From: Candidatus Enterousia sp.
GTDB taxonomy: Bacteria; Pseudomonadota; Alphaproteobacteria; Rs-D84
NCBI GenBank assembly: GCA_045645725.1
Contig: JAZRJG010000014.1
Span: 1 to 58,274 of the forward strand
Length of the DNA stretch: 58,274 bases
Reading direction: 5' to 3'
Positions 9,250 through 51,945 of the stretch are shown one piece after another. The notes beneath the pieces were generated by a model. It saw only the letters and a program-made list of their open reading frames with translations. It did not search any database and was not told the DNA's origin. How positions within the stretch are numbered: the first letter of the stretch is position 1; each line of letters opens with the position of its first letter. A program made the translations under genes and the position numbers.

Positions 9250-9251
9250 TA

Positions 9252-12763: not shown

Positions 12764-13861
12764 TTAGAATACGTATTTAATGTTTATGCCGCCAATCCAA
12801 CCGTTGTGTGCGCCGTCGCGACGACCGATTGTTGCAGACAGGTTCAGGTTTGATACGTTCTTTTCTAATGTAATACCGTATTCGGTATAGTTGCCAATGT
12901 TTAATTCGTTTTGTGCAACTTTGTTTATGACCGTGTTGGTGCCGTTTTCAAAGAACATAACGTGTTGAACGTTTGCGGAACCGTACCAACCGCTGCCAAT
13001 GTGTTTGATTGCGCGCAACATTGGGGTGACTTGGAATATGCCAATTGCGTCGTTGCGAATCGTGTCGCCAGATGCAGATGTGTAATTATCAGAATCTATC
13101 CATGTGTATCCGATTTGCAGGTTTGGTTGGATTGTAAATGTTGAATCCAATGCAATGTCGTATGTTGCGTTTACGGCTGCGCCTGCCCACATGTTTGTGT
13201 ATTCGTCTGTGCCGAATTTTGTGTTAACGGTGTTGTTTAATACGCCGCCGTTTAATGTTGTGTACAGGCCAAACTTGCCGAATTTGTTGCCGTTATAGAT
13301 GCCAAAAAATCCGCCGGTTTCTTCGATTTCAAATTCGCTGTTTGTTTGTGTGGCGTCGATGTATCCTGTGTACAGGCCCCATTTGGACAGACCGCCGATA
13401 AATTCCGATTGTCCGCCCGCCGCGCCAAATGTAAATACGTCTGATTTTGAATCAATGCGGTCGAATTCGTCGAATTTTACATTGTCTTTGGTGTGACGCC
13501 AATTGGTCCACAAACTGTTTAATGTGGCGTCGGTGTTGATGCTGTCGCCGCCACTGCGTCCATATGTGCCGTCGTCATTAAATTCGCCGTATAATGGTGC
13601 GGTGCCGTAAATCGCCGCGCGTCCGTATGTTGCGTTTGGGTCTTCTTTTGGCATAGGTGCGTATTTTTGTGGGCGTTTATGTGTGTTTGTTGACATAAAG
13701 CCGGCAAAAGATTGAAATGCGTTTTGGATGACGGTCTGTTGCATTGTTGCCACATTGTGTGTGGTAACAGTGTTTGTGTATAAATGTGCAGGTGCTGCAA
13801 TTGCCGATGTTGCGAAGCCCGCAATTGCGGCCGTTGTTAACAAAGTGTACAGATTTTTCAT
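12764..13861 (-). CDS. outer-membrane beta-barrel protein (autotransporter-beta/OMP-like)
   Basis: 365 aa. Signal peptide MKNLYTLLTTAAIAGFATSAIAAP. The C-terminal half has alternating aromatic/Gly beta-strand patterning and ends in ...GGINIKYVF (terminal Phe). GAGAGAGGAC ribosome-binding site. Confidence 0.75.
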   Translation of the reverse strand: MKNLYTLLTTAAIAGFATSAIAAPAHLYTNTVTTHNVATMQQTVIQNAFQSFAGFMSTNTHKRPQKYAPMPKEDPNATYGRAAIYGTAPLYGEFNDDGTYGRSGGDSINTDATLNSLWTNWRHTKDNVKFDEFDRIDSKSDVFTFGAAGGQSEFIGGLSKWGLYTGYIDATQTNSEFEIEETGGFFGIYNGNKFGKFGLYTTLNGGVLNNTVNTKFGTDEYTNMWAGAAVNATYDIALDSTFTIQPNLQIGYTWIDSDNYTSASGDTIRNDAIGIFQVTPMLRAIKHIGSGWYGSANVQHVMFFENGTNTVINKVAQNELNIGNYTEYGITLEKNVSNLNLSATIGRRDGAHNGWIGGINIKYVF

Positions 13862-15416: not shown

Positions 15417-15992
15417 ATGGCAAAAAAGAGTAACATATTAAAAGAATTTAGTACTTTTGTTCAACGTGGAAATGCGATAGATATGGCGGTCGGTATCATT
15501 GTTGGTAGTGTTATGACCAGTGTTGTAAATTCTTTGGTAAAAGATGTTTTGATGCCGCCGATTGGGTTGCTGATTGGTGGTGTTGATTTTTCACAGTTGT
15601 TTGTTGCGTTGGATGGATCGGGGGCGCATTATGAAACGATTGCTGCGGCGCAGGCGGCCGGTGTTACCACGCTGAATTATGGTGTTTTTATGAATTCTGT
15701 GGTCAGTTTCTTTATCACGATGTTTGCAATATTCTTGTTTGTGCGTACGATGAATAAAATGCGCGATAAAAAGCCGGCTAATACACATGCATGTCCATAT
15801 TGTACGTCCAGTATCAGTAATGCGGCGACCAAATGTCCGTTCTGTTGTTCGGATGTAGAGCCGGTAAAGACAGGCGATGTTCAAGAAAGCGACTTGAAAA
15901 AAGGTATCAAAGAAGTGACTAAATTGGCGGCCGGTGTCGCAGATGGCGCTTTGGGTAAAATTAAGAAAATTAAAAAGATTACAAAGCGTTAA
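15417..15992 (+). CDS. mscL: large-conductance mechanosensitive channel with C-terminal zinc-ribbon extension
   Basis: The N-terminal ~120 aa carry MscL hallmarks (FVQRGNAIDMAVGIIVG..., LMPPIG). The extra ~65 aa tail contains CPYC-x12-CPFCC and a Lys-rich end. Confidence 0.85.
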   Translation: MAKKSNILKEFSTFVQRGNAIDMAVGIIVGSVMTSVVNSLVKDVLMPPIGLLIGGVDFSQLFVALDGSGAHYETIAAAQAAGVTTLNYGVFMNSVVSFFITMFAIFLFVRTMNKMRDKKPANTHACPYCTSSISNAATKCPFCCSDVEPVKTGDVQESDLKKGIKEVTKLAAGVADGALGKIKKIKKITKR

Positions 15993-16022
15993 TCTTTGTG
16001 TTTGATAATCATTGTTAACAAG

Positions 16023-16049
16023 GCGAACGCTGAAACGTTCGCTTTTTTT
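16023..16049 (+). terminator. rho-independent terminator after mscL
   Basis: GCGAACG-CTGAAA-CGTTCGC followed by T7. Confidence 0.8.
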
Positions 16050-16342
16050 ATTGGCTTGTGCGGGGCGGATTATGTATAGTTTTGTTTTGCGGGTTGGGGT
16101 GGGTTTGTGTCGACAAGGGCGTTTGTAGGATTTAACTTGTTGCTGGCATTTATTGTGTTGCTGTGGGATTGGTGCGTATGAGAGTGGATTTGTGTCTAAG
16201 GGGGTGTTGCTGTATATGTTGTGTGATTTTTTTGTCGTGGCTAAAAGATGGCTATGGGTGGTGGCTTGTGAAGAAAAGTGGCGGAAAACCGCGGAGTGTA
16301 GCGATGCTTCAAAGGCGCATAATGTATATTATGTATAGTTTG

Positions 16343-16740
16343 CTGTCGTAAACGTATACATAACATAACAAAACAGAGTTCTGATGTTGTTTACTGTCGT
16401 AGACGTATACATAACATAACAGAGTTCTGATGTTATTTTCTGTCGTAAGCGTATGCATAATATAACAAATTTCTGGTGTTATTTTCTGTCGTAAGCGTAT
16501 GCGTAATATAACAGAGTTCTGGCGTTGTTTACTGTCGTAAATGTATACGTAACAAAACAAATTTCTGATGTTGTTTACTGTCGTAAGCGTATGCGTAATA
16601 TAACAGAGTTCTGGCGTTGTTTACTGACGCAAGCGTATGCATAATATAACAAATTTCTGGCGTTGTTTACTGTCGTAAGCGTATGCCATGTCATAACAAG
16701 TTGCTGGTGTTGTTTTTTTGTCGTGAACGTATGTATAAAT
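16343..16740. repeat. tandem array of 8-9 copies of a 46-bp unit (first copy 51 bp, last two degenerate)
   Basis: CTGTCGTAAGCGTATGC(A/G)TAATATAACA(GAG/AAT)TTCTGG(C/T)GTT(G/A)TTT(A/T). Unit starts are at 16343, 16394, 16440, 16486, 16532, 16578, 16624, 16670 and ~16719. The units at 16486 and 16578 are identical. Confidence 0.95.
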
Positions 16741-17122
16741 GTGTGTTGTTTTGTTGCTGTGGATTTGTGTGTTGTGTAAATGTGGCGAGTTGTGGATGGT
16801 ATTTGTGTGCGTGTGTGTGATGTGCTTTTGTGTTGTTTGGTGAAAACAAATGATTAAGTTTTATGTTTTATAATATGGTTTAATGTGTTTTGGTTGAAAA
16901 AATGTAAAAAATGCCCTGCTTTGGCCGTAAAAAAAGCAAAAAATGGCGGATTTCTGCGGTTTTTGGGTGTTTTTGGTGTCGGCGGGGCGTATTTTTAGTG
17001 TTTTTTGATGGGGTGGGTGGGCGTCAATGTACTTGTTTGTTAATTTGGGGCAATGCGCCCTGTCGTATGTTGATGTGTTTGATTAACAAGTGATAATAAT
17101 TGTTTGATTGTGGTTGTAAAAT

Positions 17123-17150
17123 AAAAAAACACGCCAATTGGCGTGTTTTT
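17123..17150 (-). terminator. rho-independent (bidirectional-looking) terminator ending the minus-strand four-gene operon
   Basis: A7-CACGCC-AATT-GGCGTG-T5. Confidence 0.75.
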
Positions 17151-17189
17151 ATCTGTGACGTTGGATTTTTGCAATTTTTTTACGATATT

Positions 17190-17486
17190 TTAGTGCTTCT
17201 TTTTTATGCTGTTTGGCTGTTTTATTTGCATAGTGTCCGCATACAAATAGTAATGCCCCGCCATTGCGCATCTGGTAAAGTGTGCGCTGTCTGGTGTGGG
17301 GCTTTGTTTGGTTAATGCCACCAATGTTGTAACCAATAATACAGATGCGTAACAATAAGCAATTGCGCCGGCGATGTTAGAGTGTCTGGCTTGGCGCATG
17401 ATATTTGATTGCAATGTGTCATATAGTTCGATTTTTGACATTTTGTCGTTATGTCTTTGGTATGGTTTTATCAGTTTATTTGTCAT
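17190..17486 (-). CDS. small hypothetical membrane protein (98 aa from the ATG; the track starts at an upstream TTG at 17498)
   Basis: One strongly hydrophobic segment, NIAGAIAYCYASVLLVTTLVAL. It is the last gene of a co-directional cluster. No motif recognised. Confidence 0.5.
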   Translation of the reverse strand: MTNKLIKPYQRHNDKMSKIELYDTLQSNIMRQARHSNIAGAIAYCYASVLLVTTLVALTKQSPTPDSAHFTRCAMAGHYYLYADTMQIKQPNSIKKKH

Positions 17487-17558
17487 CGTATTGTCCAATG
17501 GATTGAAAATGGGCGCGAACTGTGATGGTTTCCCGCCCTGCTTTTGTCGTTTTTCTTT

Positions 17559-17831
17559 TTAGCGAGAATTCTGTTTGTATTTGTCGCACATTGTTGCGAT
17601 TTGTGTTCCCAGACGTTGTGCCGATTTGAATGTTGGGCATGTGTATGGGAATATTACTTGGTGTGTGCCTTCGTGGTCGATATAGCATTTGATTACTTTG
17701 ATGCCGATTGTTGGATATACCACACCGTAATCATCGCGTATTGCGGATATGCGACATGCATGTGTGCAGCCCGTGCATGTGACGGGTGATAATGTTTCTT
17801 CGGTTTTTTTTAATTTTTCTTGTGTGAACAT
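17559..17831 (-). CDS. hypothetical protein with one copy of a novel Cys-rich ~75 aa domain
   Basis: 90 aa with an AGGAG ribosome-binding site. TCTGCTHACRISAIRDDYGVVYPTIGIKV...YTCPTFKSAQRLGTQIATMCDKYK aligns with both halves of the upstream gene's product. Confidence 0.7.
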   Translation of the reverse strand: MFTQEKLKKTEETLSPVTCTGCTHACRISAIRDDYGVVYPTIGIKVIKCYIDHEGTHQVIFPYTCPTFKSAQRLGTQIATMCDKYKQNSR

Positions 17832-17840
17832 GGGGTGCTC

Positions 17841-18422
17841 CTATTTTGTGTTTTCTTTATGTTTCAGACACATTTTGCAGATTTGGGTAGCCAAGACCTG
17901 GGCTGCTTGGAATGACGTGCATGTGTGGCTAAACACGACTTCACGTTTGGTGTTGATATTCCAGTATGTTCGGATTTTTACGCCTGCGATTGTTGGATAT
18001 ATGACGCCATTTTCATGTGTTGCGCGCAAATGACATTTGTTTAAACAGCCGTCGCAATGCATGTCGGACATTTTGCCTTCGATTGTGCGTGCCAATCTGG
18101 ATTGAGAGAAACCATTGTTTTTGTCTTTTCTTTCCCATGGTTTGTATAAGACGGTGCGCATTTTGTGATGATGGTCGCACAGATCGGCAACAGATGCCGC
18201 CATTTCTGTGCCTGCTTCGTAATCTTCTGTGTCGGCGATATGTTTTGTGCCATTTGTATCAATGTATGAATAAATTGGTGTGCCGGCAATTGTGGGTACA
18301 AATACATTGTAACCTTGTTGGGCGCTTAAAGTGCAATGTTTAGGACAGCCGTCGCACACCGGTTTGAATGATGTGTTTGGTTCTTGGACTGTCGGTTTTT
18401 CCGGATCTGTTTGTGTGAACAT
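17841..18422 (-). CDS. hypothetical protein with two tandem copies of the same novel Cys-rich domain
   Basis: 193 aa. VCDGCPKHCTLSAQQGYNVFVPTIAGTPI... and HCDGCLNKCHLRATHENGVIYPTIAGVKI...HTCTSFQAAQVLATQICKMCLKHK. Confidence 0.7.
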   Translation of the reverse strand: MFTQTDPEKPTVQEPNTSFKPVCDGCPKHCTLSAQQGYNVFVPTIAGTPIYSYIDTNGTKHIADTEDYEAGTEMAASVADLCDHHHKMRTVLYKPWERKDKNNGFSQSRLARTIEGKMSDMHCDGCLNKCHLRATHENGVIYPTIAGVKIRTYWNINTKREVVFSHTCTSFQAAQVLATQICKMCLKHKENTK

Positions 18423-22084: not shown

Positions 22085-22111
22085 GCCCCGCATTTTGCGG
22101 GGTGTTTTTTT
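22085..22111. terminator. terminator between convergent leuS and the Cys-rich paralog
   Basis: GCCCCGC-ATTTT-GCGGGG hairpin followed by T7. Confidence 0.75.
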
Positions 22112-22133: not shown

Positions 22134-24482
22134 TTATTCCATACCTTCGGGTGGTGTGCATGCATTTTGGTCGCCTGGGGGGCAAACCTGATTTTTTGAG
22201 TCGGGTACGACGGCTTCCCATTCGCCAGCGGCATTCGGTATTGTTGCGACGCATTTTACGGATGTGCCATTGTTGCTGCGGCGGCCACCGTTTTCCCAAC
22301 ACAGACATGCGCCCCAAGATTGGGTGTCGACGCTGTCGCTGTATGTTGCGGGACACATATTTTCGTTTGTTTTTGTTGAGTCGTTTTCGTCTGTTTGGAT
22401 GTTGTAACCTTCGAGTGATGAGCCCGAATATTGACAGAAAGCGTCGGATTTATAGGTGCCGATTTTAATCCACGGGTATTCAACAAAGCGACCAGATAAA
22501 TTGGTGCATTGTGTGGTTAAGATGGACAGAATCTGATTATAAACTTCGGTTGCGACGCCAACGGGACGTAAATTGCGGTGGTACAACTCTGTTTCGTCTG
22601 CGTTCAACGTGCCGTATTTCTTTTGTGTGCCTGTTTCGTTGTCAACGGTGAATGTCAGGTCGTTTATTTTGACGTCGATGTATGCAGAATCAAATCCGCC
22701 AAATGCCTGTTCAATCATATCAGGGTCGCTGCATGCGTCAATGTTTTGTAATTGTCGGGCGCATTCTGATTTGATTGCACGGCCATTGGTGTAATCATAC
22801 AATGTAAACCAATCTGGGGCGGCGCCCGCTGTGAACAAGCCGCTGTATGGATAATAGAAATTTTCATGGTTGGTGCCACCGTATTTGTCAAAGCACTGTT
22901 TAACGACCGCACGACATGCCGTCAATGTGTCGGTGTCTTGGATTTTGTCCATGTATGCTTGGATTATATTATCGTCAAACATATTGTTGCATGATTGGAC
23001 ATAATCGGCGCACATTTGGGCGTTTAATGCCAGTGCGTCTGGTTGCAGAACGACGGTTGCGTCGCCGGTTAATTCCGCCATCGCGGACGTTATTGCGTTG
23101 TCATTGTTTATATAGCACGAAGAAACAAAGTCAAAGCAACCTTGTTTAATTTCTTGGACTTTGTCTTTTTGGGCATAGTATATATCCAGCATTGCTTTGT
23201 CCAAATATTCGGCCCATACGATGTCCGCATTTTCGACACATGTGTCCAATGCGTCCGCTGCAAATTTTTTGACCCGGTTTTCAAAGTGTTGGACAAAAGC
23301 GCGGTTGGCGGCATTTTGTGCCAATTTTTGGTCGGCGGCTTCTATGCCGGTTTGGAATTTCAGCATTTCTTCCAGTTTATAGAAATCTTTGACGCCGGCA
23401 ATAGGTGCGCCGGTTGAAATATCAATGTATTTGCCGTCGTCTAAGCATTTATGATAATTTTTTCCACATACTTGTTCGCTGACAATTGCGGATTCGACGG
23501 CGTTGATGCATGTGGTTATGTCGGACGAATTGTGTTTTTTGCGATTTTCAATGCGTGCCAAATCCAACATTGCGCCGCCTTCGCGGATAGATGCTTTCAT
23601 GTCTTTGCGGCTGTTTTCAAATGCGGTTGCGACGGTGTTACAGTCCTGCTCTATCGCCATAAGGTATGCGGTTACGGCACGTTGCAGGGATGCGTCGTTA
23701 CAATCGGTGGCGACCGCTTTGCGGCATTGTGGATATACGGCGGAATACAGGGCTTGACCATTGTATGTGCCGATAATTTGACCGGCGTCTGCCGTTCCAA
23801 ATGCGTTTGCAGTGTCGAAAGATATTTTTACACTGTTTAATTCGGAATATTTGCCGTCGACGTGACTGTCGGCACCACGTATAGAGTTCATAATGGCTTG
23901 TAATAGCGCTTTGGATGCAGATGTGTCTTTGGTTAATGCGGCTTCGCCTTCGGATGCATTGACCATTGCGCCGGCTTGGGCGGCGGACATTCCGACGACG
24001 TCCAGGTTATCTGAAAATGTGGTTAATTTGTCGCCCGCGTTTTGGATTGTGTTGCGCGTGTCCATTAAATCGTATACGCGATCACTGCAAGAACAGCGAC
24101 GATAATCGTCGCTTTTTAATGTGCAAAATTGGTCCATGCATGTGAAGTATGTGTTTTTGCACTTTTCGTATTCGGCACCTGTTTGGGTTTGTGACATATC
24201 AAAGCCGGTGTTCGTTGTGGCGCGTGCAGTTATGCGTTTTTGTGTTGTGTTATGCGTTTGGGCCGGTGTTCTTGCAATTGTTCGTTGGGCGGTACGCGCG
24301 ATGGCGGGCGCGGCCGGTTGACGTTGTGTTGCGTTGCGTGTGGTGGAATAAATTCTGCCTTGGGGTGATGTAGACGAGTTGTTTTTTGATGCGCGAGATA
24401 CCGTCATGCCATCCCGAACAGCGCCGTTCGCGACCCCCATGCACGTTAATACGTTTGCTGCAAAAATCAGAATTTTCTTCAT
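22134..24482 (-). CDS. secreted cysteine-rich protein, CMDQFC-family paralog 1 (782 aa from MKKILIF; an alternative ATG at 24503 adds 7 aa)
   Basis: Signal peptide MKKILIFAANVLTCMGVANGA, then an Arg/Ala/Thr/Gln-rich low-complexity region. The conserved core YFTCMDQFC...YRRCSCS...QDCN...CGKNYHKCLDDGKYIDISTGAPI is collinear with the 41777-44203 product. Confidence 0.8.
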   Translation of the reverse strand: MKKILIFAANVLTCMGVANGAVRDGMTVSRASKNNSSTSPQGRIYSTTRNATQRQPAAPAIARTAQRTIARTPAQTHNTTQKRITARATTNTGFDMSQTQTGAEYEKCKNTYFTCMDQFCTLKSDDYRRCSCSDRVYDLMDTRNTIQNAGDKLTTFSDNLDVVGMSAAQAGAMVNASEGEAALTKDTSASKALLQAIMNSIRGADSHVDGKYSELNSVKISFDTANAFGTADAGQIIGTYNGQALYSAVYPQCRKAVATDCNDASLQRAVTAYLMAIEQDCNTVATAFENSRKDMKASIREGGAMLDLARIENRKKHNSSDITTCINAVESAIVSEQVCGKNYHKCLDDGKYIDISTGAPIAGVKDFYKLEEMLKFQTGIEAADQKLAQNAANRAFVQHFENRVKKFAADALDTCVENADIVWAEYLDKAMLDIYYAQKDKVQEIKQGCFDFVSSCYINNDNAITSAMAELTGDATVVLQPDALALNAQMCADYVQSCNNMFDDNIIQAYMDKIQDTDTLTACRAVVKQCFDKYGGTNHENFYYPYSGLFTAGAAPDWFTLYDYTNGRAIKSECARQLQNIDACSDPDMIEQAFGGFDSAYIDVKINDLTFTVDNETGTQKKYGTLNADETELYHRNLRPVGVATEVYNQILSILTTQCTNLSGRFVEYPWIKIGTYKSDAFCQYSGSSLEGYNIQTDENDSTKTNENMCPATYSDSVDTQSWGACLCWENGGRRSNNGTSVKCVATIPNAAGEWEAVVPDSKNQVCPPGDQNACTPPEGME

Positions 24483-24585: not shown

Positions 24586-24656
24586 ACATACTGACGCATA
24601 AACAAAAAAACACCCCTGTGGGGTCTTTTATGTTTATGGTGGATGTGATTGGACTC
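24586..24656 (-). repeat. orphan copy of the tRNA-Val 3' end (20 nt) plus its ~50-nt downstream flank with terminator hairpin
   Basis: 71 nt, identical to 24778-24847 except for one extra A in an A-run. Includes the AAAAGACCCCACAGGGGTGTTTTTTT terminator (minus strand). Confidence 0.95.
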
Positions 24657-24777: not shown

Positions 24778-24847
24778 ACATACTGACGCATAAACAAAAA
24801 ACACCCCTGTGGGGTCTTTTATGTTTATGGTGGATGTGATTGGACTC
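24778..24847 (-). repeat. resident copy of the same 70-nt segment (3' end of the intact tRNA-Val gene plus terminator)
   Basis: See 24586-24656. The minus-strand hairpin ACCCC-ACA-GGGGT plus T6 directly follows the tRNA CCA end. Confidence 0.95.
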
Positions 24848-24904
24848 GAACCAACGACCTCTTCGATGTGAACGAAGCGCTCTAACCAACTGAGCTACAC
24901 ATCC
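24828..24904 (-). tRNA. tRNA-Val (anticodon CAC), CCA encoded
   Basis: Hand-folded cloverleaf: GGATGTG/CACATCC acceptor, GCTC/GAGC D stem, CTTCG-TTCACAT-CGAAG anticodon arm, GTTGG-TTCGAGT-CCAAT T arm. 77 nt. Confidence 0.9.
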
Positions 24905-24934
24905 GTATAAAAAAATCGCCATTGTGGCGAGTAT

Positions 24935-25021
24935 TGGTGGGGATAGTGGGACTTGAACCCACACGGTCGCAATGACCAAAGGATTTTAAGTCCTCAGCGT
25001 CTACCATTCCGCCATATCCCC
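24935..25021 (-). tRNA. tRNA-Leu (anticodon TAA), long variable arm, CCA encoded
   Basis: GGGGATA acceptor, GAGGA-CTTAAAA-TCCTT anticodon arm, long variable arm, GGGTTCAAGTCCC T arm. 87 nt. Confidence 0.9.
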
Positions 25022-25043
25022 GAAGACCATGTATATAAAAATT

Positions 25044-25119
25044 TGGTGGAGCTGATGGGACTCAAACCCACGACCTCTACGATGCGAACGTAGCGCTCTA
25101 TCAACTGAGCTACAACCCC
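25044..25119 (-). tRNA. tRNA-Ala (anticodon CGC), CCA encoded
   Basis: The acceptor GGGGTTG/CAGCTCC carries the G3:U70 identity pair. CTACG-TTCGCAT-CGTAG anticodon arm. 76 nt. Confidence 0.9.
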
Positions 25120-25126
25120 AAAACTC

Positions 25127-25213
25127 TGGTGGGCGTAAGAAGACTCGAACTTCCAAGGTATTGCTACCACTAGTACCTGAAACTAGCGCGTCTACCAATT
25201 CCGCCATACGCCC
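25127..25213 (-). tRNA. tRNA-Leu (anticodon CAG), long variable arm, CCA encoded
   Basis: GGGCGTA acceptor, CTAGT-TTCAGGT-ACTAG anticodon arm, long variable arm, GAAGTTCGAGTCTTC T arm. 87 nt. Confidence 0.9.
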
Positions 25214-26622: not shown

Positions 26623-27273
26623 TTAACCTTTTTGTGTTGTGGGTGTGGCGGATAAATCGACTAATTTATATCCACAACCACGGATTGTTATTATGTCTAA
26701 GTGCGATAGTACCAAATTTAATTTGCTGCGCAAGCGTTTTGCAACCATTGGTGATGCAGGCACGGTGTTCCCAATTGGATGTGTCAGATGGGTCAGCAAT
26801 CGTTTCTCTTCGCCCGATAATGGCAATGGGTGTGTGCCAGATGCGTTGGTTGTAAAGAATTCTTGGTTGGAAAATTTTAAACCCGTTGGCATTTGGGTGT
26901 CGGTATTTTTAGTATTGGCGGTCATGTTGTTTATGCGCAATATTAATTCGCGAATTTGAAACGGTTTGGTCAAATAATCGTTTGCCCCACCAGACAGGCC
27001 GTCAATCGCATTCGCCGATCCCGACATAGCCGTTAACATAATCGTTGGTGTTGTGTCCCCAGATGAACGTAGTTGTTTTAAGAAAGTCAATCCGTCTGTG
27101 CCGGTCATCATGCGGTCTAATACAATTGCGTTAACCGATATGCGTTGTAATATGTCTGATGCGTTTTCGGCAGAATTCGCGGTCAAGACGTAAAAACCTT
27201 CTTTGCGCAGGCCTTGGGCCAGTGTGTCGCGCAATATGTCGTCGTCGTCAATGATTAAAATGGTTTTGTTCAT
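26623..27273 (-). CDS. OmpR-family response regulator
   Basis: 216 aa. Receiver domain (IIDDDD..., LDRMMTGTDG, TAMS) plus a winged-helix end (IITIRGCGYKL). Confidence 0.9.
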   Translation of the reverse strand: MNKTILIIDDDDILRDTLAQGLRKEGFYVLTANSAENASDILQRISVNAIVLDRMMTGTDGLTFLKQLRSSGDTTPTIMLTAMSGSANAIDGLSGGANDYLTKPFQIRELILRINNMTANTKNTDTQMPTGLKFSNQEFFTTNASGTHPLPLSGEEKRLLTHLTHPIGNTVPASPMVAKRLRSKLNLVLSHLDIITIRGCGYKLVDLSATPTTQKG

Positions 27274-28193
27274 TGTTTTTCTAATGGTTCAACCGCGTAT
27301 TCGCCGGGGGCAATTGCGTGCATGTTGCCATTTACGCCATCTTCTAATGCGGCGTGGCCCATTTTTACACGTTGTTGCATACCGCCGGGGGCAAATTCGG
27401 TTTTGAATAATGCGTATCCTGTGCCGCCACCGGTTGTTGGTCCCTGCATCCCCAAAGAGTAGTAACCGCCCAAAATGCCATAGTCCAAATCAATGTAGTC
27501 AATGCTGACCATTAATGATATGTTGCTGAAACCGTCGCTGGTCATATTGCATGCGAATTCGCGGTTTGATAGTGTGGCTTGGGAATTTACGGGTACAACG
27601 ATGTCCATAATGGTTGGTTCGCATACACGATTGATACCGTTTACCAAGAATTCATATGTCATACCAACCGTTGCTTTTGAAAGGCCGGTTGATACATATA
27701 CTTGGGAAATAGTCGCTTTTGGAATTTTTGCCATTGCGTTTGCGATACCGCTGCGGACCGGAAATGAAATACCCGATTGCAGACAGTCGCGTGAAAATGG
27801 GTCTGCTTCACAGATATATACGCGCGAATAGTCATTTTGCATGAACATGTTGGCCAAACTGTTGAATAAGAACGTGCGTGTTATACGGTCGTTCAGTTTT
27901 GTGCAACCAAAATTACGGCATATAACCATTGGTCTGTCTGCGAATTTTACGCCCGGGTGCATTTGGGATTCTATGTGACGGGCGTCCATAATGTTTTGGT
28001 CATAGTTCAAACTGTCCGCGCGTTGCATAAATTCGCTTTCTGGGATAAAGTTCGGATCGTCGGGATATGCATAGTACGATTGTACAGGTGTCTCTGTATA
28101 AATCGTTTGAAAATCGTCATATACCGCCGTGTTCGCGTTGGCCGTAAATCCACAGCAGACAAGCATTGCAGACGTTAAAAATAATCTTCGCAT
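27270..28193 (-). CDS. secreted/lipoprotein-like hypothetical protein co-transcribed with the two-component system
   Basis: 307 aa. N-terminal MRRLFLTSAMLVCCGF (signal/lipobox-like). 4-nt ATGA overlap with the response regulator start. No known motif. Confidence 0.65.
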   Translation of the reverse strand: MRRLFLTSAMLVCCGFTANANTAVYDDFQTIYTETPVQSYYAYPDDPNFIPESEFMQRADSLNYDQNIMDARHIESQMHPGVKFADRPMVICRNFGCTKLNDRITRTFLFNSLANMFMQNDYSRVYICEADPFSRDCLQSGISFPVRSGIANAMAKIPKATISQVYVSTGLSKATVGMTYEFLVNGINRVCEPTIMDIVVPVNSQATLSNREFACNMTSDGFSNISLMVSIDYIDLDYGILGGYYSLGMQGPTTGGGTGYALFKTEFAPGGMQQRVKMGHAALEDGVNGNMHAIAPGEYAVEPLEKQ

Positions 28194-33227: not shown

Positions 33228-33258
33228 AAAAAACATGCGCCCGTGGGCGCATGTTTTG
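33228..33258. terminator. bidirectional terminator shared by tolA (+) and rnpB (-)
   Basis: A-run, ACATGCGCCC-GTG-GGCGCATGT, then a T-run. Confidence 0.75.
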
Positions 33259-33586
33259 TAGACAGGCATATAAGCCGGGTTCTGTGCTGCCATAATTCAG
33301 TGTGTTTTGCATACCATATTATGGTAGTGAACATGATTAATCTGCATACTGCATTACTGCGGTATGTCAAGCCCTCTACCCGCCCCCATGTGGGACACAT
33401 ATCGGGGGCCTATTTGAGGTTGCTGCACGTAGAGATTGCCCGTTTCACTCGAATTTAATCGTTTCGTCACTGTTGCTCTGATCGTCGGGTCGCCCCGCCC
33501 GGTATATTAGCCGGTACGTTGTCCCATGCAGCCCGGACTTTCCTCAGGATACAAAAATATCCCGCCATGTCCCGCCTGTCGTACGG
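33256..33586 (-). ncRNA. rnpB: RNase P RNA (bacterial type A)
   Basis: The minus strand contains the universally conserved GAGGAAAGTCCGGGC (CR-I) near the 5' end and ACAGAACCCGGCTTAT (CR-V) near the 3' end. The P1 helix pairs GACAGGC with GCCTGTC. About 330 nt. Confidence 0.9.
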
Positions 33587-40000: not shown

Positions 40001-40480
40001 GACAGAAAGTCCGTACAAATTGCGGCAAATGTGAATTCTTTTGGGCGTCGTCGCACCAAGACAGGTAAAGAAATGATTACTATTAACGCGTCGGACAGTT
40101 TTGGCAATATTGATGCGGTTGCATTTGGGGATGCGGCAATTGAATTTTCCCAGATTTTGTCGGGCGAAAGCGTGGTTTTAATATCGGGCAAAACGTCAAA
40201 TCGTGATGACAGAGTTTCGATTTTTGTTGATTCTATTGTGCCTTTGACCCAATGGGTGGCAAAAATCGCCAAAAAGGTGACAATGGATATCCGTGACCAA
40301 GCGGTTTTACAGGATGTAAAAAAAGCATTAATTGCGTTGCCACGTGGATATACGCGTGTTGAATTGGTTTTGCATGGTGCGGAAAAGACGGCGACTGTGG
40401 CTTTGCCCGGTGGGGTTGAATTGGGCGCTACAACGGTTGCGGACTTGACGGCATTGGGCATTCGTGTGGAGATTGAATAA
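37070..40480 (+). CDS. dnaE: DNA polymerase III alpha subunit
   Basis: 1136 aa. N-terminal PHP domain (HLRVHS...), palm motif MPDFDVDF, HhH and OB regions, NKSHAIAYS. Confidence 0.97.
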   Translation: MDSKFIHLRVHSRFSVGASTLTIKQIPKLCAAAEMFGCALTDTNLMSGCAEFSDVMPSNKLQPIIGVELTLNQHAVDPKMLRSHALSKIVLLAQNHTGYLNLCELNRVMYMRPDNHHLGPYVTFDELAERCAGLICLSGAHLGPVGMALLENQEETARGYVRRLLDLFGDRFYMEIQRHGLESEIKTEVGFLQIARDLNVPIVATNDVCFAADTDYEAADALGCVLGQTKVIDPERPRKSSEQYFKSYEQMAEIFSDLPEAIENTVVIAQRCGFMVNVHEKPLLPRFGDDLETECQMLRDDTMNGLRRRIEQHGITDTAPYYEQAEFELGVIIGMGFPGYFLIVADYIDWCRKNDVLTGPGRGSGAGSIVAWALGITNVDPLKYGLLFERFLNPDRISMPDFDVDFEPTGIERVLAYVCEKYGHDSVCRIITFGSLQARGAIRDIGRVYGMPYSKSDRLSKLIPQDAKTLKDAVGMSGEIQDILNNDQDLNKVVTVAEDLEGSLRNLGQHACGVVIGDRPTTKIAPVYRDPANPLPSCQFDGKYLEKSGLIKFDFLGLETLVVLKYATRLIQQTRGVNIDLDQIPTDDPKTMRLWQQGLTEGIFQFDAPFVQQTLRKMHPTSFLEISALNALNRPGPIAFIPQFIARMHGEEEIEYVHPRAEPILKETYGIIVYQEQVMQLTRVLAGFTRGQSDNVRKAMGKKIIAMLDELEGKFYEGCEKEGTLDRQTAKDLWEKFKDFAKYAFNKSHAIAYSIVANQCAYLKANYTPEFLAASMSSNLNDTDQLAIFVDDAKSNFGIQIVAPDINQSESLFAVRDGKIIYGLAALKGVGTQATDAIVAERNANGKFKNLTDFAKRCAPIMNKRILEAFAKTGVLDSLEPNRAAIYMNADAILSYASKSRGGANMLSLFENTVEDDVADDRLCKNLPKTAPWTFGQKLENELSALGFYISAHPLDQYKHLIERSNLATSATLESLGDRKSVQIAANVNSFGRRRTKTGKEMITINASDSFGNIDAVAFGDAAIEFSQILSGESVVLISGKTSNRDDRVSIFVDSIVPLTQWVAKIAKKVTMDIRDQAVLQDVKKALIALPRGYTRVELVLHGAEKTATVALPGGVELGATTVADLTALGIRVEIE

Positions 40481-40481
40481 A

Positions 40482-41345
40482 ATGACGGCAAAGCATATTC
40501 CGGTTTTATTAGATGCGGTTTTGGATGCGTTGGGCGATATTTCCGGTCAGACGGTGGTTGACTGTACATTTGGTGCGGGTGGATATTCGCGTGCATTTTT
40601 GGCACGTGGCGCAAAGGTTATTGCGTTTGATCGTGATCCGAACGTTGTGGCTGATGCGATGGATATGGTTGCGGAATATGGTGACCGATTTACGTTTATT
40701 CCCCGCCCTTTTTCGTCTTTGGATGAATTGGATGGCACGGTTGATGCGATTGTATTTGATTTGGGGATTTCGTCGATGCAGATTGATGTTCCCGAACGTG
40801 GTTTTTCTTTTCGGGCCGACGCGCCATTGGATATGCGTATGTCGGCCGATGGTATGACGGCGGCAGAATTGATTGAAAGTTCAGATGTGACCAAGTTGGC
40901 GCGGATTTTGGCTGATTATGGCGATGTAAAAAAGGCAGTGCCTGTGGCACGGGCGATTAAACAAGCGGTGCCCAAAACAACATTTGAATTGCGTGACCTT
41001 ATATACAATCCAAAAGATATTGCGCCGGTTTTTCAGGCATTGCGTATCGCGGTAAATGACGAAATGGGTGAATTGGAACGGGCTTTGGCGGCGGTGCCGG
41101 CGCATTTGTCGTGCGGCGGGCGATGTGTGTGTGTGACGTTCCATTCGTTAGAGGACAGGATTGTTAAAAATACTTTCCGCGGGTGGACGACGTCATTGGG
41201 GGATCCGCGTATGCCGGTTGTATCGGCGGCGCCTTTTGCGGCAATTCGTGCGGTAAAGCCATCGGATGCGGAATTGGTGGCCAATCCACGTGCGCGGTCG
41301 TCGCATATGCGTGCGGTGGTAAAATTGTGCCCGGGGGATGAATAA
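40482..41345 (+). CDS. rsmH: 16S rRNA (cytosine1402-N4)-methyltransferase
   Basis: Start at MTAKHIPVLL. DCTFGAGGYS SAM motif, GISSMQID, FHSLEDRIVK. Confidence 0.92.
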   Translation: MTAKHIPVLLDAVLDALGDISGQTVVDCTFGAGGYSRAFLARGAKVIAFDRDPNVVADAMDMVAEYGDRFTFIPRPFSSLDELDGTVDAIVFDLGISSMQIDVPERGFSFRADAPLDMRMSADGMTAAELIESSDVTKLARILADYGDVKKAVPVARAIKQAVPKTTFELRDLIYNPKDIAPVFQALRIAVNDEMGELERALAAVPAHLSCGGRCVCVTFHSLEDRIVKNTFRGWTTSLGDPRMPVVSAAPFAAIRAVKPSDAELVANPRARSSHMRAVVKLCPGDE

Positions 41346-41752
41346 TGCATAAAAATAACGATGTAAAACACTTAACAGAACGTGCAGATGCGGCGAAAAA
41401 GGTCAATCCGTTGGATTTGTCGTCTGACCAAGATTTGACAATTGCTGTTATGAATTTGATTGCCATAGAAGATATGGTGTGTGGTGATGTTGCGGATGCT
41501 GTCGGTGAAATGCGTGCGGCGTTGTTGGGGCGGATTGTGCCTGTGGAAAAAAATATGAATTTGTCGGTTGGATTGTTGGGTACTGCGATGCGGTTGATTG
41601 AATCCGGTAATCGGGCGGCGGATTTGGGTGATATGGAAACGGCATATCGGGTGTATGACGAAGCGTATTCGGCATATTCGTTGTTTTGGGGATTGAATAT
41701 GGGTTTTGTATCGGCGGACGATATAAAAATATCAGAATATGGTGTAAACTAA
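41345..41752 (+). CDS. hypothetical protein (135 aa, no TM)
   Basis: The start overlaps the rsmH stop (TAATG). No motif recognised. Not FtsL-like, because it has no TM segment. Confidence 0.5.
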   Translation: MHKNNDVKHLTERADAAKKVNPLDLSSDQDLTIAVMNLIAIEDMVCGDVADAVGEMRAALLGRIVPVEKNMNLSVGLLGTAMRLIESGNRAADLGDMETAYRVYDEAYSAYSLFWGLNMGFVSADDIKISEYGVN

Positions 41753-41776: not shown

Positions 41777-44203
41777 ATGGTAAAATGCGAAAAAGAGAGA
41801 AGCAAATTGAAACATTCTTTATATTGTTTAAGCAGTTTTTGTGCATTGATGTTGGCGGCGTTTGGTGCGGCGGTTGCTGAACCTGCGCCAAATCCACGCA
41901 GTGCGACCATGGCGGCAATGGGCGCGCGTGCAGATGGCAAATCAATTAATCGTTCGGATTCCGATACGTCGCGTAATACCGCACGTCGTGCGTCGCGCAG
42001 TGCAACCGTTAATGCAAAGCCGGTGACGGAACGTACGCATGTGCGTTCTGCGGCACCAATGGTTGATCGTCGTGAATCGACGGTGGTTCGTGCGGCATCG
42101 ACGGGTGTGGCACGTTCGGCAACGGTGGCGCGTGGTGGCAATACGGCGCGTTCTGCGGCGCCGGTGGCATCGGGTATGGCCCGTGCGGCATCAACGGCAC
42201 GTGCAACGGCGGTCTTTAATGATATTTCCAAAATTGGTGGCGGTTATGGTGCATGTCGCGATTCGTATGCCACGTGTATGGATCAATTTTGTGCGAACGC
42301 CAATGATACATATCGTCGCTGTTTTTGCAGTGCCAGATTTACCGAATTTCGTGATACAGAATATGCGTTGGATGAAGCACGTCAGTTGTTACAACAATTT
42401 GAAGATAACAGTTTGAATGCCGTTGATAAAACCGCGGCCGAGGTTAACGCAATGTACAGCGCAACCGTTGGTGAAGCGGCAATAAAAAAAGATACCAGTT
42501 TGGCGCAAAAAACATTGAATGAAATTGGTGATTTGCTGTCGGGTAAAAAGAAAGCAAGTACAATTCAGGCGCCAACAACGTCTTTGGGGACTTTGTCTTT
42601 GGATTTTTCGTCCAGTATGGATGATATTTGGGGCGGTGGTTCGGCATTTGATTCTGTCTTTGAACGCAGCAGCAGTGTGGATATGAGTGCATTAGAAGGT
42701 GCGAATCTGTACAATGCGGCGAACAAGCAATGTATGCAGGTTATCAAAGGTTCATGCGAAAATGATGCGGTTTTGAATATGGCGTCCAGTGCGTATGGCA
42801 TTATGGTATCCCAAGATTGTAATGCATATGAACGTGCGTTGGACAGAAAACGTGAAGAAGTTTTGGCGGTTGTTCGTACGGCGGAAAAGGCCCTGCGTCA
42901 AGCGCGCTTGGAAGAATATCGTGCGCATAATTCGGCCGACGTAAATGAATGTTTGTCGCGTGTGCGTGAAGCGATGTTGACCGATACCGCATGTGGTGAT
43001 AATTATTACAGATGTTTGGATTATACGGGTAAATATATCAACCTGTCCACGGGTGAACCGATTTATACACCGGAGTTGTTCCAGTTGACAGAATTGGTCA
43101 CGTTGGATGATGGCTATGTTGGTCGTGATAATGCGGTGGCACCGACCGGTGGATTTGATAAATTCTTGGACGAACGTCGTATTTATGCCGAATCGGCATT
43201 GGATTCGTGTCGTGATATTGCGGATACGGTTTGGTTTGAATTTAAACGTGCTGCAAAAATTGAAATTGAACAGGCACAAAATGAAAAGATAGAAGAAATC
43301 AAAACGTCGTGTATGGATACGGTGCGTGAATGCTATGACACGCAATCGAATCATTTGAAATCTTTTGATGATACTACGGCCCAGATGTCGGGTGGTTTGG
43401 CGGCGTATGCAGCACAGCAAATGTGTGTGGATAAATTGATGTCGTGTGCGTCTTTGTATGGTAATGGTAAATGTAATGCAACCGTGTCAAATGGTCGTGT
43501 TACGTTTGATACGACGTCCAAAGATTGTGGTATGACCGCATTGTTGGAATATGCAAATACGGTGGACAGTGTTCGTATCGCCGAAGGTTGCGTCGAAGCA
43601 ATTTCAAAATACATAACCGATACATGTACCCCAACGGGTGATGGTGATTATCCAATGAATTGTCGTACTTTGTCAAAAACGGATTTTGAAAAATCAATTA
43701 TGACACGTGTATCGTTGTATTGCCGTGAACCGGATGGCAGCAAGATTGCAGAAGACAAAACGTCTATTTCGGAGATAGGCGATGCGGTGATGCGTGATAA
43801 TATTCAAAAAATGTTCGATAATGCGGTTGCGGAAATCAGTTCGGCATTGATGGAAAAATGTGCGGAAAACAACGGTCTGTGGTATGAAACGGGTGATGAT
43901 GGCTCTTTGGCTGCGGATGTTATGGCAATGAATAAAGAATCTGTGTATTATTCAACTGTGTTTGGTCGTTCGGATGATACGGCGGAACGTTATGGTCGCT
44001 GTGCGGCAAACGATGAACGCAATGCGTGTTTGGCCATGAATGATATGGGTGATGGCATTGAATATACTTCGTTTGATACATCGCGTAATGTTTGTGTCTT
44101 CAATGATGCGTGGTATGAATATACGTGTGCAAATGTATTAAATGGCGAATGGTCGGATAATACTTGCTATTGGGATTCCCGTAATAAATCGGAAAATGAA
44201 TAA
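41777..44203 (+). CDS. secreted cysteine-rich protein, CMDQFC-family paralog 2 (808 aa)
   Basis: Signal-like LYCLSSFCALMLAAFGAAVA, then degenerate (V/A)R(S/A)A(S/T) repeats. The core YATCMDQFC...YRRCFCS...QDCN...CGDNYYRCLDYTGKYINLSTGEPI is collinear with the 22134-24482 product. Confidence 0.8.
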   Translation: MVKCEKERSKLKHSLYCLSSFCALMLAAFGAAVAEPAPNPRSATMAAMGARADGKSINRSDSDTSRNTARRASRSATVNAKPVTERTHVRSAAPMVDRRESTVVRAASTGVARSATVARGGNTARSAAPVASGMARAASTARATAVFNDISKIGGGYGACRDSYATCMDQFCANANDTYRRCFCSARFTEFRDTEYALDEARQLLQQFEDNSLNAVDKTAAEVNAMYSATVGEAAIKKDTSLAQKTLNEIGDLLSGKKKASTIQAPTTSLGTLSLDFSSSMDDIWGGGSAFDSVFERSSSVDMSALEGANLYNAANKQCMQVIKGSCENDAVLNMASSAYGIMVSQDCNAYERALDRKREEVLAVVRTAEKALRQARLEEYRAHNSADVNECLSRVREAMLTDTACGDNYYRCLDYTGKYINLSTGEPIYTPELFQLTELVTLDDGYVGRDNAVAPTGGFDKFLDERRIYAESALDSCRDIADTVWFEFKRAAKIEIEQAQNEKIEEIKTSCMDTVRECYDTQSNHLKSFDDTTAQMSGGLAAYAAQQMCVDKLMSCASLYGNGKCNATVSNGRVTFDTTSKDCGMTALLEYANTVDSVRIAEGCVEAISKYITDTCTPTGDGDYPMNCRTLSKTDFEKSIMTRVSLYCREPDGSKIAEDKTSISEIGDAVMRDNIQKMFDNAVAEISSALMEKCAENNGLWYETGDDGSLAADVMAMNKESVYYSTVFGRSDDTAERYGRCAANDERNACLAMNDMGDGIEYTSFDTSRNVCVFNDAWYEYTCANVLNGEWSDNTCYWDSRNKSENE

Positions 44204-44215
44204 AGGTGGTGACGT

Positions 44216-45535
44216 ATGAAAATGCATAAAAATATTTTTGTTGGTTTTATGGCGTTATGTGTCGCGTCACCGGCGTTTGCCGATAAAGTGTCCGGGGAAG
44301 TTTCAACGTCATGGGGCAATCCATCGGTTAAGAAGTGTATTTCTACATTCCCAACGGAGTTTTCAATTGATAAAGATGGGCAATTCCAGGAAAAGATTAA
44401 TACATTGTTGCCCAGAACAATAAATGATAATGGTGTAGAGTTTTGTCCGATGTTGATTGGCAGTTATCGAAAAAATACAACCGATCGTCCTGCGTTGTAT
44501 GCTTACTATGCCAGTGGAAAAAGTGCAGCGGATTGTTTTTGGGTTTGTAAGGACGGCTTTGGTGGTAAAAATTGTTCTGTTGATTATTCAACAGGGGCAC
44601 AAACATGTGATGCGGTACCGTTAGATATCCCAAGAATGAGTGGCAATGATGACAATGGTTCGGTGAAAATGGCATACTTTTTCAAGGATCACTATGATTG
44701 CAGTAATAAGGTAAATGGACGAAAAACCAGTGATCAAAATAATTATCATTATGTTACGATGGGGGTTGAAAAAATATTAGAACACGGTGTGATTTCGCGT
44801 CCGGTTACGATACGCGCTTTTGGCCAAAAATCTGATAAAGGGTGGAATTATGCTCTGATGGAACCGATTGGTGCCGATTTCCATTTGTTGTGTAAAAATG
44901 GGTATAAACCAAATGTGGATAATTCGGCTTGTGTGCCAATTGATTCTGTGTTGTGTGATGCCACACCAATATGTGACGGTTGGGATCATGCGGTGTTCAA
45001 GGATACTAAAACGTATAAAAGAAAAAATGTAGATGGTTGTATTCAGTATCGTTGCGCCCAATCAGATTATGGTTTTGCTGGTGATCCTACAAGCGAAGAT
45101 TCTGCGCGTGAGTGTATAGAATGTTCGGCCGATGGTTATTATTCTGTGTTGTTGGATGATGGACGTTGTGAAATGCGTCCATTGGAAGACGGTAAAGGTG
45201 TCGAATACGATGAAAATGGTAATGTGGTGCAATTTGAATTGGAAAAGACCAGAAAGCGCGACATGATAAATAAAACGGGCGGTAAGTCAAATAAGCCATG
45301 TTGGCAGTATATGGTTGAAGATGAAGAAGAATTCAGGAATTGTTTGTCATCAGGCACGTCTTCGTCATCTTCGTCGTCATCATCTTCTTCGGGCTCTGCG
45401 ACATCATCACCTTCGGCGCCAACTACGTTTGGTATGCCTGTGAAGCCGTCGACTGGGTTGCCTGGTTCTGCTTCTCCGGTCATGTCACATCCGACATTGA
45501 CGTTGAATCCTGATGTGACGGTAACGACGATTTAA
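44216..45535 (+). CDS. secreted cysteine-rich protein with EGF-like Cys spacing and a poly-Ser tract (439 aa)
   Basis: Signal peptide MKMHKNIFVGFMALCVASPAFA. CFWVCKDGFGGKNC. SSGTSSSSSSSSSSSGSATSSPS near the C terminus. AGGTGG ribosome-binding site 12 nt after the paralog-2 stop. Confidence 0.75.
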   Translation: MKMHKNIFVGFMALCVASPAFADKVSGEVSTSWGNPSVKKCISTFPTEFSIDKDGQFQEKINTLLPRTINDNGVEFCPMLIGSYRKNTTDRPALYAYYASGKSAADCFWVCKDGFGGKNCSVDYSTGAQTCDAVPLDIPRMSGNDDNGSVKMAYFFKDHYDCSNKVNGRKTSDQNNYHYVTMGVEKILEHGVISRPVTIRAFGQKSDKGWNYALMEPIGADFHLLCKNGYKPNVDNSACVPIDSVLCDATPICDGWDHAVFKDTKTYKRKNVDGCIQYRCAQSDYGFAGDPTSEDSARECIECSADGYYSVLLDDGRCEMRPLEDGKGVEYDENGNVVQFELEKTRKRDMINKTGGKSNKPCWQYMVEDEEEFRNCLSSGTSSSSSSSSSSSGSATSSPSAPTTFGMPVKPSTGLPGSASPVMSHPTLTLNPDVTVTTI

Positions 45536-45546
45536 TTGTAAATACA

Positions 45547-45572
45547 ACACCCCGTTCGGGGTGTTTTTTTTA
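45547..45572 (+). terminator. rho-independent terminator
   Basis: ACACCCC-GTTC-GGGGTGT followed by T8. Confidence 0.85.
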
Positions 45573-51729: not shown

Positions 51730-51945
51730 TGGGATAAAAAATGGAAAAGAAATTAGTAAGTTTTAGTTTGGCGGATGATGTTAAATCTGCGGCACCGGCG
51801 GGGTATGTAGAATCGTTGGAAAAATTAGTTAATGATATCATGATTCCACGTGAATTGGAAAAGATGTGCACCCAAGAAGGTCGTGTGTACAACCATAGTT
51901 TTGCAGATTATCAAAAAATGGCACGTGATATTTGGGGTGATACAA
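51718..51945 (+). repeat. duplicated 5' module, copy A (23 nt upstream of the ATG plus the first 205 nt of the gene)
   Basis: Roughly 90% identical by eye to 52979-53206, at the same offset from the start codon. Confidence 0.9.

Follow-up and report, generated by a model that had tools for sequence, protein, structure and literature searches.

The 58,274-nucleotide contig JAZRJG010000014.1 of a Candidatus Enterousia species (order Rs-D84, Alphaproteobacteria), analysed over its full length and called the window here, carries two large genes for exported cysteine-rich proteins, P1 and P2, on opposite strands. Judging from their sequences, P1 and P2 are an ancient, retained pair of paralogues that founds an undescribed, clade-restricted family. 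Both follow one plan, in which a Sec signal peptide is succeeded by a cationic disordered tail, an acidic long-helix domain and an alpha/beta C-terminal domain. They are probably cell-surface proteins that meet other cells, and attachment to or recognition of a partner would be their likeliest role. Coordinates of the genes, their domains and their neighbours are collected in Table 1.

The preliminary description of the window had presented the two products as collinear secreted paralogues of about 800 residues. The paralogy was borne out: residues 15-509 of P1 and 37-561 of P2 aligned by BLASTP with 167 identities in 536 positions (31%, E=1e-68), far beyond chance, and the similarity lay in the core, most strongly in its cysteine-containing blocks, and not in low-complexity sequence. 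Every motif listed at that stage was found in both proteins, giving seven shared blocks: Y(F/A)TCMDQFC...YRRC(S/F)CS, GEAA(L/I)(T/K)KDTS, (E/S)QDCN, CG(K/D)NY(H/Y)(K/R)CLD..GKYI(D/N)(I/L)STG(A/E)PI, ALD(T/S)C....AD.VW.E, EIK..C.D.V..CY and QMC.D...SC. Collinearity held for the signal peptide, the tail and the N-terminal domain but not for the C-terminal domains. Detectable homology ends near residue 510 of P1 and 561 of P2, and profile-profile comparison of the P1-type and P2-type C-terminal domains (240-280 residues) gave an hhalign probability of 3.9% (E=0.011); at that value their homology is unproven, and the MAFFT alignment may have forced the cysteine columns that they share. Identity to P1 is 56-87% among P1-type orthologues and identity to P2 is 48-97% among P2-type orthologues, whereas it is 25-30% between proteins of the two types, indicating that the duplication is older than the sampled radiation. 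Each paralogue has a large orthologue set of its own, in agreement with the old and maintained duplication suggested before. For P1 we used the ATG at 24482 (MKKILIF...), the start shared by database cluster P0001 and the orthologues; an alternative TTG 21 nucleotides upstream would give 789 residues. P2 has a Shine-Dalgarno sequence, AAGGGTG, 8 nucleotides before its ATG.

Homologous clusters numbered 907 with a profile of P1 and P2 and 976 with P2 alone, and 896 representatives were found at E<=1e-3 (426 at 1e-30) among 1.84 billion 50%-identity representatives. At least 374 loci were confirmed when one genome per GTDB species was scanned; loci named individually carry L numbers, and genomic context was read from loci of about 14 kb. 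The loci are labelled Ca. Enterousia, 'Alphaproteobacteria bacterium' (metagenome-assembled genomes, MAGs, from the guts of humans, mice, chickens, ruminants and deer) or 'uncultured Rickettsiales bacterium UMGS1303/1304', and complete chromosomes among the family-bearing genomes measure 958,618 bp in OZ007020.1 and 716,531 bp in a smaller one. Within the sequence collections searched, the family occurs only in reduced-genome Alphaproteobacteria of the gut, namely Ca. Enterousia, Rs-D84 and their relatives. MAGs labelled 'Muribaculaceae bacterium' (L068, which is the smaller of these complete chromosomes, OZ246409.1; L061; and the source of protein P0226) carry the family in normal synteny, and these labels are probably wrong. 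The family signature, found in a core of about 400-440 residues, consists of C-M-D-Q-F-C, R-R-C-x-C, Q-D-C-N and C-G-x-N-Y-x-x-C-L-D together with 17 cysteines. A third lineage of 900-1176 residues is about 30% identical to P1- and P2-type proteins, only over roughly the first 600 residues; its members keep the N-terminal domain and have different, longer C-termini. They come from MAGs labelled Rickettsiales, Proteobacteria or Alphaproteobacteria bacterium, one of which also has orf135, the gene before P2. An extra weak family member lies near P1 in L028 and L081.

No described family had been recognised in the preliminary description, and our searches agree with this. The homologues are all named 'hypothetical protein' in their sources, and none carries a precomputed Pfam domain. 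Searches of Pfam, NCBIfam, PHROGs and PADLOC with P1, P2, orf135 and P3 (the gene after P2) gave no match above threshold; in PHROGs, P1 had none and P2 one sub-threshold match (E=0.0068). Pfam was also searched with 50 diverse family members, and all of these searches returned sub-threshold noise only, for example Sol_i_2 with 17 bits where the cut-off is 26. The sequence-profile search of the PDB gave 0 matches, and Foldseek against PDB and BFVD gave nothing at E<=0.001. Kinship with alpha-helical pore-formers of the ClyA/MakA kind was rejected, since MakA (6ezv) and MakE (6w08) were reached by Foldseek at E=2.7-3.9, with probability <=0.13 and TM <=0.24. P3 and a 1674-residue cysteine-rich open reading frame (ORF) of the window were rejected as family members for want of BLASTP similarity.

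Signal peptides and basic tails of Ala, Arg, Thr and Ser, which had been pointed out in both proteins, are conserved across 240 homologues, the former with cleavage sites of the AxA type, and the succession of signal peptide, tail and acidic body was parsed in 232 of them. Cleavage follows the consensus VAN(A/G), before AVRDG, in P1-type proteins and A-x-A, before (E/I)(P/G)-P-x-N, in P2-type proteins. The signal peptides of either type show neither a twin arginine nor a lipobox ([LVI][ASTVI][GAS]C): in P1 orthologues the residue preceding the signal-peptide cysteine is T, A, F or V and the AxA site comes after the h-region, and P2-type signal peptides have no conserved cysteine. A lipoprotein was rejected because the lipobox is absent. 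The earlier word 'secreted' is supported in the sense of export from the cytoplasm only, to which the Sec signal peptides and the cysteine parity point. The tails have a median length of 109 residues in P1-type proteins (20% T, 16% A, 12% R and 11% S) and 121 residues in P2-type proteins (composed of A, S, R, V and T), with a net charge of +12 and a pI of 12 in both, and 232 of 235 homologues have no cysteine there. Six to nine arginine columns of the tail are conserved in the context [S/A/T]-R-[S/T/A]-A, and the residues between them drift. The tail repeats described earlier exist as degenerate units by composition, but they are not tandem repeats at the DNA level, as TRF found none in the P1 and P2 tails. 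The body that follows has a net charge of about -37 and a pI of 4.5 in both lineages.

Sixteen cysteine columns of the N-terminal domain are close to 100% Cys in both lineages (122 members), and 17 core cysteines are invariant across 50 diverse members of the three lineages, as are M19, D20, R32, D183, N221, D251, G253 and G261; both results support the remark that cysteine positions were kept while the intervening sequence diverged. The mature proteins have an even number of cysteines (28, 30, 32 or 34) in 119 of 120 P1-type and 113 of 115 P2-type sequences (232 of 235). Gain and loss of cysteines in twos is a classic sign of full disulfide bonding, and the parity argument was reportedly used by Dutton et al. 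in PNAS in 2008. Applied to P1 and P2, it indicates that the bodies are all-disulfide, with about 14-15 bonds, and folded outside the cytoplasm. Pairs of the form Cx6C lie inside predicted helices, five in P1 (108/115, 339/346, 449/456, 491/498 and 523/530) and four in P2, and the P1 and P2 families contain no CxxC or CxxCH motif. The placement of Cx6C pairs on one face of a modelled helix suggests helix-helix disulfide staples made by oxidative folding. Parity this close to perfect also implies that disulfides are formed efficiently. No Dsb-like gene was seen in the window.

In an AlphaFold2 model built from a 122-sequence alignment (mean pLDDT 76.6, pTM 0.50), long helices, the longest spanning 55 residues, make up core residues 1-440 (examples are 166-220 and 322-362) apart from an insert of low confidence at 72-134, and residues of about 450-660 form an alpha/beta domain with a pLDDT of about 90. 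Column conservation in the N-terminal domain is 0.8-0.9, and hhalign comparison of three segments of this domain against each other gave no internal repeats (probability <=2%).

We then compared the window with its close relatives L090 and L091, in which 13 flanking genes are 95-100% identical, with a synonymous divergence (dS) of 0.01-0.09 and a nonsynonymous divergence (dN) of at most 0.022. Identity over the whole of P1 is 91.6% (dN 0.051). Against L090, its signal peptide, tail and N-terminal domain are 97-100% identical (98.9% for the N-terminal domain) with a dS of about 0.05-0.08, while the C-terminal domain is only 74.8% identical, with a dN of 0.168 and a dS of 0.377. The identity minima are at residues of about 600-640, a block of predicted beta strands (core 500-545), and at 731-782; the least conserved block in the whole family, core 501-525, likewise falls on predicted beta strands. 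The jump in dS shows that this head was imported by recombination and not simply mutated in place; the C-terminal domain of P1 has been exchanged between otherwise near-identical strains. At the nearest P1 orthologue locus, L005 (labelled Candidatus Enterousia sp.), P1 is 83% and LeuS 98% identical to the window, and dS is 0.82 for the whole P1 allele versus 0.18 for leuS. P2 is 97.2% identical to its counterpart in L092, with an ordinary dS (flanks about 0.05-0.09) and a dN of 0.013, ten times that of dnaE, dnaK and secA; against L088, its N-terminal domain is 88% and its C-terminal domain 67% identical. The gradient of identity, N-terminal domain above C-terminal domain and tail at about the same level, was seen in 14 pairwise comparisons (seven for P1 and seven for P2).

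In its usual setting, P1 is convergent to lpxB-lpxA and to genes for a bactofilin, an M23 peptidase, a methyltransferase and a membrane protein, with two unknown secreted proteins upstream; the lipid A genes lpxA and lpxB flank it in 57-58 of 80 loci. Its neighbour in the window and in close relatives is instead leuS, which is convergent and, in the window, 68 nucleotides away. An operon-based inference for P1 was rejected, because its neighbours lie on the opposite strand and vary between genomes. P2 was preceded by rsmH and orf135 in all six general loci holding it, and again in L088, L089 and L092; the string secA-dnaE-rsmH-orf135-P2 is found in L001-L003, L072, L076, L084, L088, L089 and L092. 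Orthologues of P1 and P2 are adjacent and convergent in L072, L076 and L084, and both types are present in UBA6376 (L002, L060), MAG IJX89, sample ERZ27297756 and the window.

The organism bears on what these proteins might do. Rs-D84 genomes, those of Ca. Enterousia included, are smaller than about 1 Mb, are reported without respiratory chains and lack most biosynthesis, and an obligately symbiotic or parasitic life is predicted for the members (PMC12306168). Termites are hosts to them as well, whether or not these harbour gut flagellates (PMC11257099). To explain how the bacteria live off other cells, the published genome analysis could name only 'hypothetical membrane-bound proteins' as candidates (PMC12306168).

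Given the strain-hypervariable head and the predicted lifestyle, which are the main basis for placing P1 and P2 at the surface, we propose that they are a surface-exposed pair with a tether, a rod and a variable head that contacts a partner, and we give this reading as a whole somewhat less than an even chance. P1 and P2 would sit on the cell surface, where the cationic tail would tether them to an anionic partner. This could be lipid A or lipopolysaccharide, the latter considered because the genomes have lpxA and lpxB; alternatively, the tail could bind the acidic rods of adjacent molecules, from which a coat would result. The disulfide-stapled helical rod would act as a protease-resistant stalk and may also provide the interface for an association of P1 with P2. 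Facing outward, the variable alpha/beta head would contact partner cells, host mucus, phages or antibodies, and such contacts would explain its diversifying turnover. In a bolder form, which we regard as doubtful, P1 and P2 would be a previously unseen two-protein surface structure, universal in Rs-D84, serving as the attachment or recognition device of an obligately partner-dependent gut life; the recombining head would then set partner or host specificity, and both the fold and the mode of anchoring at the Gram-negative surface would be new.

Several points weigh against a surface pair. A lipobox, a beta-barrel, an autotransporter domain and a recognisable secretion signal of type 1, 5 or 9 are all missing from P1 and P2, which leaves no recognisable route across the outer membrane or anchor in it. 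An autotransporter (type V) was rejected because P1 and P2 gave no Autotransporter match, although the same model detects the ORF at 12764-13861 of the window; their C-termini, ...EGME and ...SENE, have no terminal aromatic residue, and the modelled C-terminal domain is a small alpha/beta fold. The dN/dS of the head, 0.2-0.44, is below 1, and positive selection is thus not demonstrated; a weaker constraint together with recombination could account for its fast turnover. P2 varies much less than P1 between near-identical strains (97% identity overall). An association of P1 with P2 would be drawn only from co-occurrence and occasional adjacency, the AlphaFold2 model is only moderately confident at its pTM, and all sequences come from MAGs. 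Finally, an organism reported to have no respiratory chains leaves the oxidant for so many disulfides unexplained.

Some of the same observations would suit a periplasmic envelope scaffold, with the tail binding peptidoglycan or inner-leaflet lipids and the rod spanning or stiffening a reduced envelope. No targeting signal besides the Sec signal was found, the N-terminal domain is strongly conserved, envelope genes (lpxA, lpxB, M23 peptidase, bactofilin) neighbour P1, and P2 occupies the usual place of ftsL/ftsI after rsmH. However, a hypervariable head swapped by recombination is unexpected in a periplasmic structural protein, the lpx genes are on the opposite strand and hence not co-transcribed with P1, and the peptidoglycan-binding domains LysM, OmpA_C and SPOR were not detected by Pfam in P1, P2 or the 50 members; we consider a scaffold unlikely. 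A further rival is a released effector or polymorphic toxin, whose N-terminal part would serve export or delivery and whose C-terminal domain would act on partner or competitor cells. A conserved N-module with a variable or replaced C-terminus resembles polymorphic toxins, and the different, longer C-termini of the third lineage and the predicted dependence on a partner are in line with it. We nevertheless consider an effector quite unlikely, and a polymorphic toxin was rejected: alleles of one orthogroup keep the same cysteine-conserved head at about 75% identity, with no swap to an unrelated domain; no immunity-like small ORF lies downstream, the next gene being the convergent leuS in the case of P1 and P3 or others in that of P2; and there was no match to a toxin domain, an enzyme or a defence system, the best pore-former resemblance being that to MakA (E=2.7, probability 0.13).

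The many invariant cysteines, several of them paired on one helix face, could also be read as ligands of Fe-S, haem or zinc in a metal- or cofactor-binding redox protein. This is very improbable, as cysteine number changes in twos with near-perfect even parity, no redox family was matched, and the lack of CxxCH and CxxC motifs and of RR in signal peptides of the Sec rather than Tat type led us to reject a c-type cytochrome or Tat-exported Fe-S protein. It is barely credible that P1 and P2 are cargo derived from a mobile element or phage, such as a receptor-binding or tail protein, and not core cellular genes; the allelic mosaicism of P1 and the hypervariability of the adjacent P3 might be taken that way, but the synteny with housekeeping genes is stable (secA-dnaE-rsmH-orf135-P2; P1 near lpxB and leuS), the family is present in hundreds of species-level genomes, PHROGs gave no significant match and BFVD no fold match, and the window holds no phage genes.

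Table 1. P1 and P2, their predicted domains and neighbouring features in the window
Feature	Position	Strand	Remarks
P1 gene	22134..24482	-	782 aa + stop; exported Cys-rich protein; first founding member; ORF, paralogy, homologues
P1 signal peptide, aa 1-20	24423..24482	-	MKKILIFAANVLTCMGVANG then AVRDG; Sec type; sequence, ANA/AVRDG kept in orthologues
P1 polycationic Cys-free disordered tail, aa 21-97	24192..24422	-	composition, conserved spaced Arg columns
P1 acidic long-helix Cys-rich N-terminal domain, aa 98-540	22863..24191	-	family-defining module; AlphaFold2, 17 invariant Cys
P1 alpha/beta C-terminal 'head', aa 541-782	22137..22862	-	AlphaFold2 pLDDT ~90; hypervariable between strains
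Bidirectional terminator-like hairpin	22085..22103	.	between convergent leuS and P1
rsmH, 16S rRNA methyltransferase	40464..41345	+	PF01795 in orthologous loci; 73% identity by tblastn
orf135, clade-specific helical-bundle gene	41345..41752	+	synteny, 1160 homologues, AlphaFold2
P2 gene	41777..44203	+	808 aa + stop; second founding member; ORF, homologues
P2 signal peptide, aa 1-34	41777..41878	+	...MLAAFGAAVA, then EPAPNP; sequence, orthologues
P2 polycationic tail, aa 35-149	41879..42223	+	degenerate [VA]-[SA]-R-[STA]-A units
P2 helical Cys-rich N-terminal domain, aa 150-600	42224..43576	+	similarity, Cys columns, conservation
P2 C-terminal domain, aa 601-808	43577..44200	+	faster evolving; no significant similarity to P1 head
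P3, unrelated 439-aa secreted Cys-rich gene (19 Cys)	44216..45535	+	signal peptide; 13 nt after P2
Strong terminator-like hairpin + T-run	45546..45565	+	closes rsmH-orf135-P2-P3 string

Among the neighbours of P2, the start of orf135 overlaps the stop of rsmH. The dcw cluster is broken here in this clade, with rsmH followed by orf135 and P2 and not by the usual ftsL/ftsI. The orf135 family (1160 clusters) is clade-restricted and has neither annotation nor Pfam match; AlphaFold2 predicts a bundle of helices (pLDDT 85.6) for which there was no specific fold match, its PDB sequence matches are designed coiled coils, and it was dropped as a source of functional clues. The gene evolves fast, with 92.6% identity where the flanks exceed 99%, and 57% identity to L088; longer forms of 180-210 residues (homologues P0416-P0505) all end in ...NCCIE. 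No terminator-like site was found between P2 and P3. The third cysteine-rich secreted gene announced after P2 was confirmed, signal peptide included, but is unrelated to the family and present only in close relatives; more distant genomes (L001-L003) have no P3 after P2. When the P3 loci of the window, L087 (355-1575) and L092 (8440-9807) were compared, P3 was 58-63% identical (dS 0.8-0.9) where the dnaK, pfk, ACP and lysM flanks were 99-100% identical (dS 0.02-0.10); its signal peptide and Ser-rich C-terminus are conserved and its middle is replaced.

Elsewhere in the window, the 1674-residue ORF at 103-5127 (+) has 106 cysteines (6.3%) and an acidic Gly-rich array of the GGNEGGDE type (DNA repeats at 424-803), with no Pfam match and no obvious signal peptide at its first in-frame start; it encodes another large cysteine-rich protein of this genome, which measures about 0.9 Mb. 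Further ORFs of small or medium size, with 2.6-7% Cys and no Pfam family, lie at 17841-18422 (-), 8677-9644 (+) and 27270-28193 (-); the first, of 193 residues, evolves relatively fast against L090 (94.8% identity, dN/dS 0.43). The ORFs at 51741-52970 and 53002-54279 (+) are tandem paralogues, 49% identical over about 335 residues, which both begin with MEKKLVSFSLAD and belong to no Pfam family; one has 15 cysteines. A 46-bp tandem repeat (16364-16738, 8.1 copies, 82% matches) sits in a 1.85-kb stretch (15992-17841) without ORFs of 120 or more residues. Two identical hairpins, ACCCCACAGGGGT, each with a T-run (24612-24624 and 24803-24815), are 190 bp apart between the start of P1 and a cluster of four tRNA genes (24828-25213, -); a fifth tRNA gene is at 54337-54410 (+), and the RNase P RNA, of bacterial class A, is at 33255-33582 (-; 177 bits). 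G+C is about 43%, and the GC skew in 2-kb windows is very strongly positive throughout (+0.07 to +0.37), being lowest where genes are on the minus strand (22-28 kb).

Rs-D84 and Ca. Enterousia have no cultured member, although they are widespread in the guts of humans, rodents, birds, ruminants and termites. In genomes of roughly 750-1000 kb with about 850-900 genes, two genes of about 800 codons take up some 0.5% of the coding capacity, a large investment. P1 and P2 now have a domain plan, a family signature, evidence of oxidative folding and a hot spot of strain diversity within one domain. Antibodies or tagged heads could serve in finding partners, the genes could serve in typing Enterousia strains in metagenomes, and the fold, for which no relative was detected in the PDB, would be a target for structural work. 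A physiological question is raised as well, namely how an anaerobe without respiration oxidises about 15 disulfides per molecule.

P1 and P2 appear to be of a familiar kind, that of disulfide-rich proteins which are exported to the envelope or surface and bear a variable head, whereas the family, the plan of tether, rod and head, and the biological setting appear new. Their nearest functional analogues would be the chlamydial cysteine-rich envelope proteins and TraN, neither of which is a relative. OmcB and OmcA likewise have a Sec signal peptide and a many-cysteine body held by disulfides, in an obligately host-dependent bacterium with a reduced genome, and OmcB has a basic N-terminal segment, which binds host glycosaminoglycans. 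They belong to another taxon, however, and their body is made of beta repeats, where P1 and P2 are modelled with a bundle of long helices and an alpha/beta head; moreover, P1, P2 and 50 members gave no Pfam match to chlamydial outer-membrane-protein or DUF11-type families at E<=1. TraN is similar in its large size, its export, its conserved cysteines, which number about 20 or more, and its division into a conserved and a variable part, the latter setting which surface structure of the partner cell is recognised. P1 and P2 differ from it in having no TraN match in Pfam or NCBIfam and no conjugation (tra/trb) genes nearby, and in being an ancient pair of chromosomal core genes among housekeeping and envelope genes. 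The twin-Cx9C/Cx3C proteins of the mitochondrial intermembrane space (CHCH type) also carry cysteine pairs at fixed spacing on a helix face, as the model predicts for Cx6C here, but the spacing is different and the scale far smaller than here, and P1 and P2 are bacterial, exported proteins with 17 cysteines in about 440 residues and no sequence similarity to them. Cysteine-rich variable surface proteins of anaerobes living in the gut, such as the Giardia VSPs, share the disulfide-rich make-up, the protease-exposed gut setting and strain-variable exposed parts; the VSPs consist of CxxC repeats with a C-terminal membrane anchor and form a switching repertoire, while P1 and P2, without CxxC or a transmembrane anchor, are a fixed pair of orthologues.

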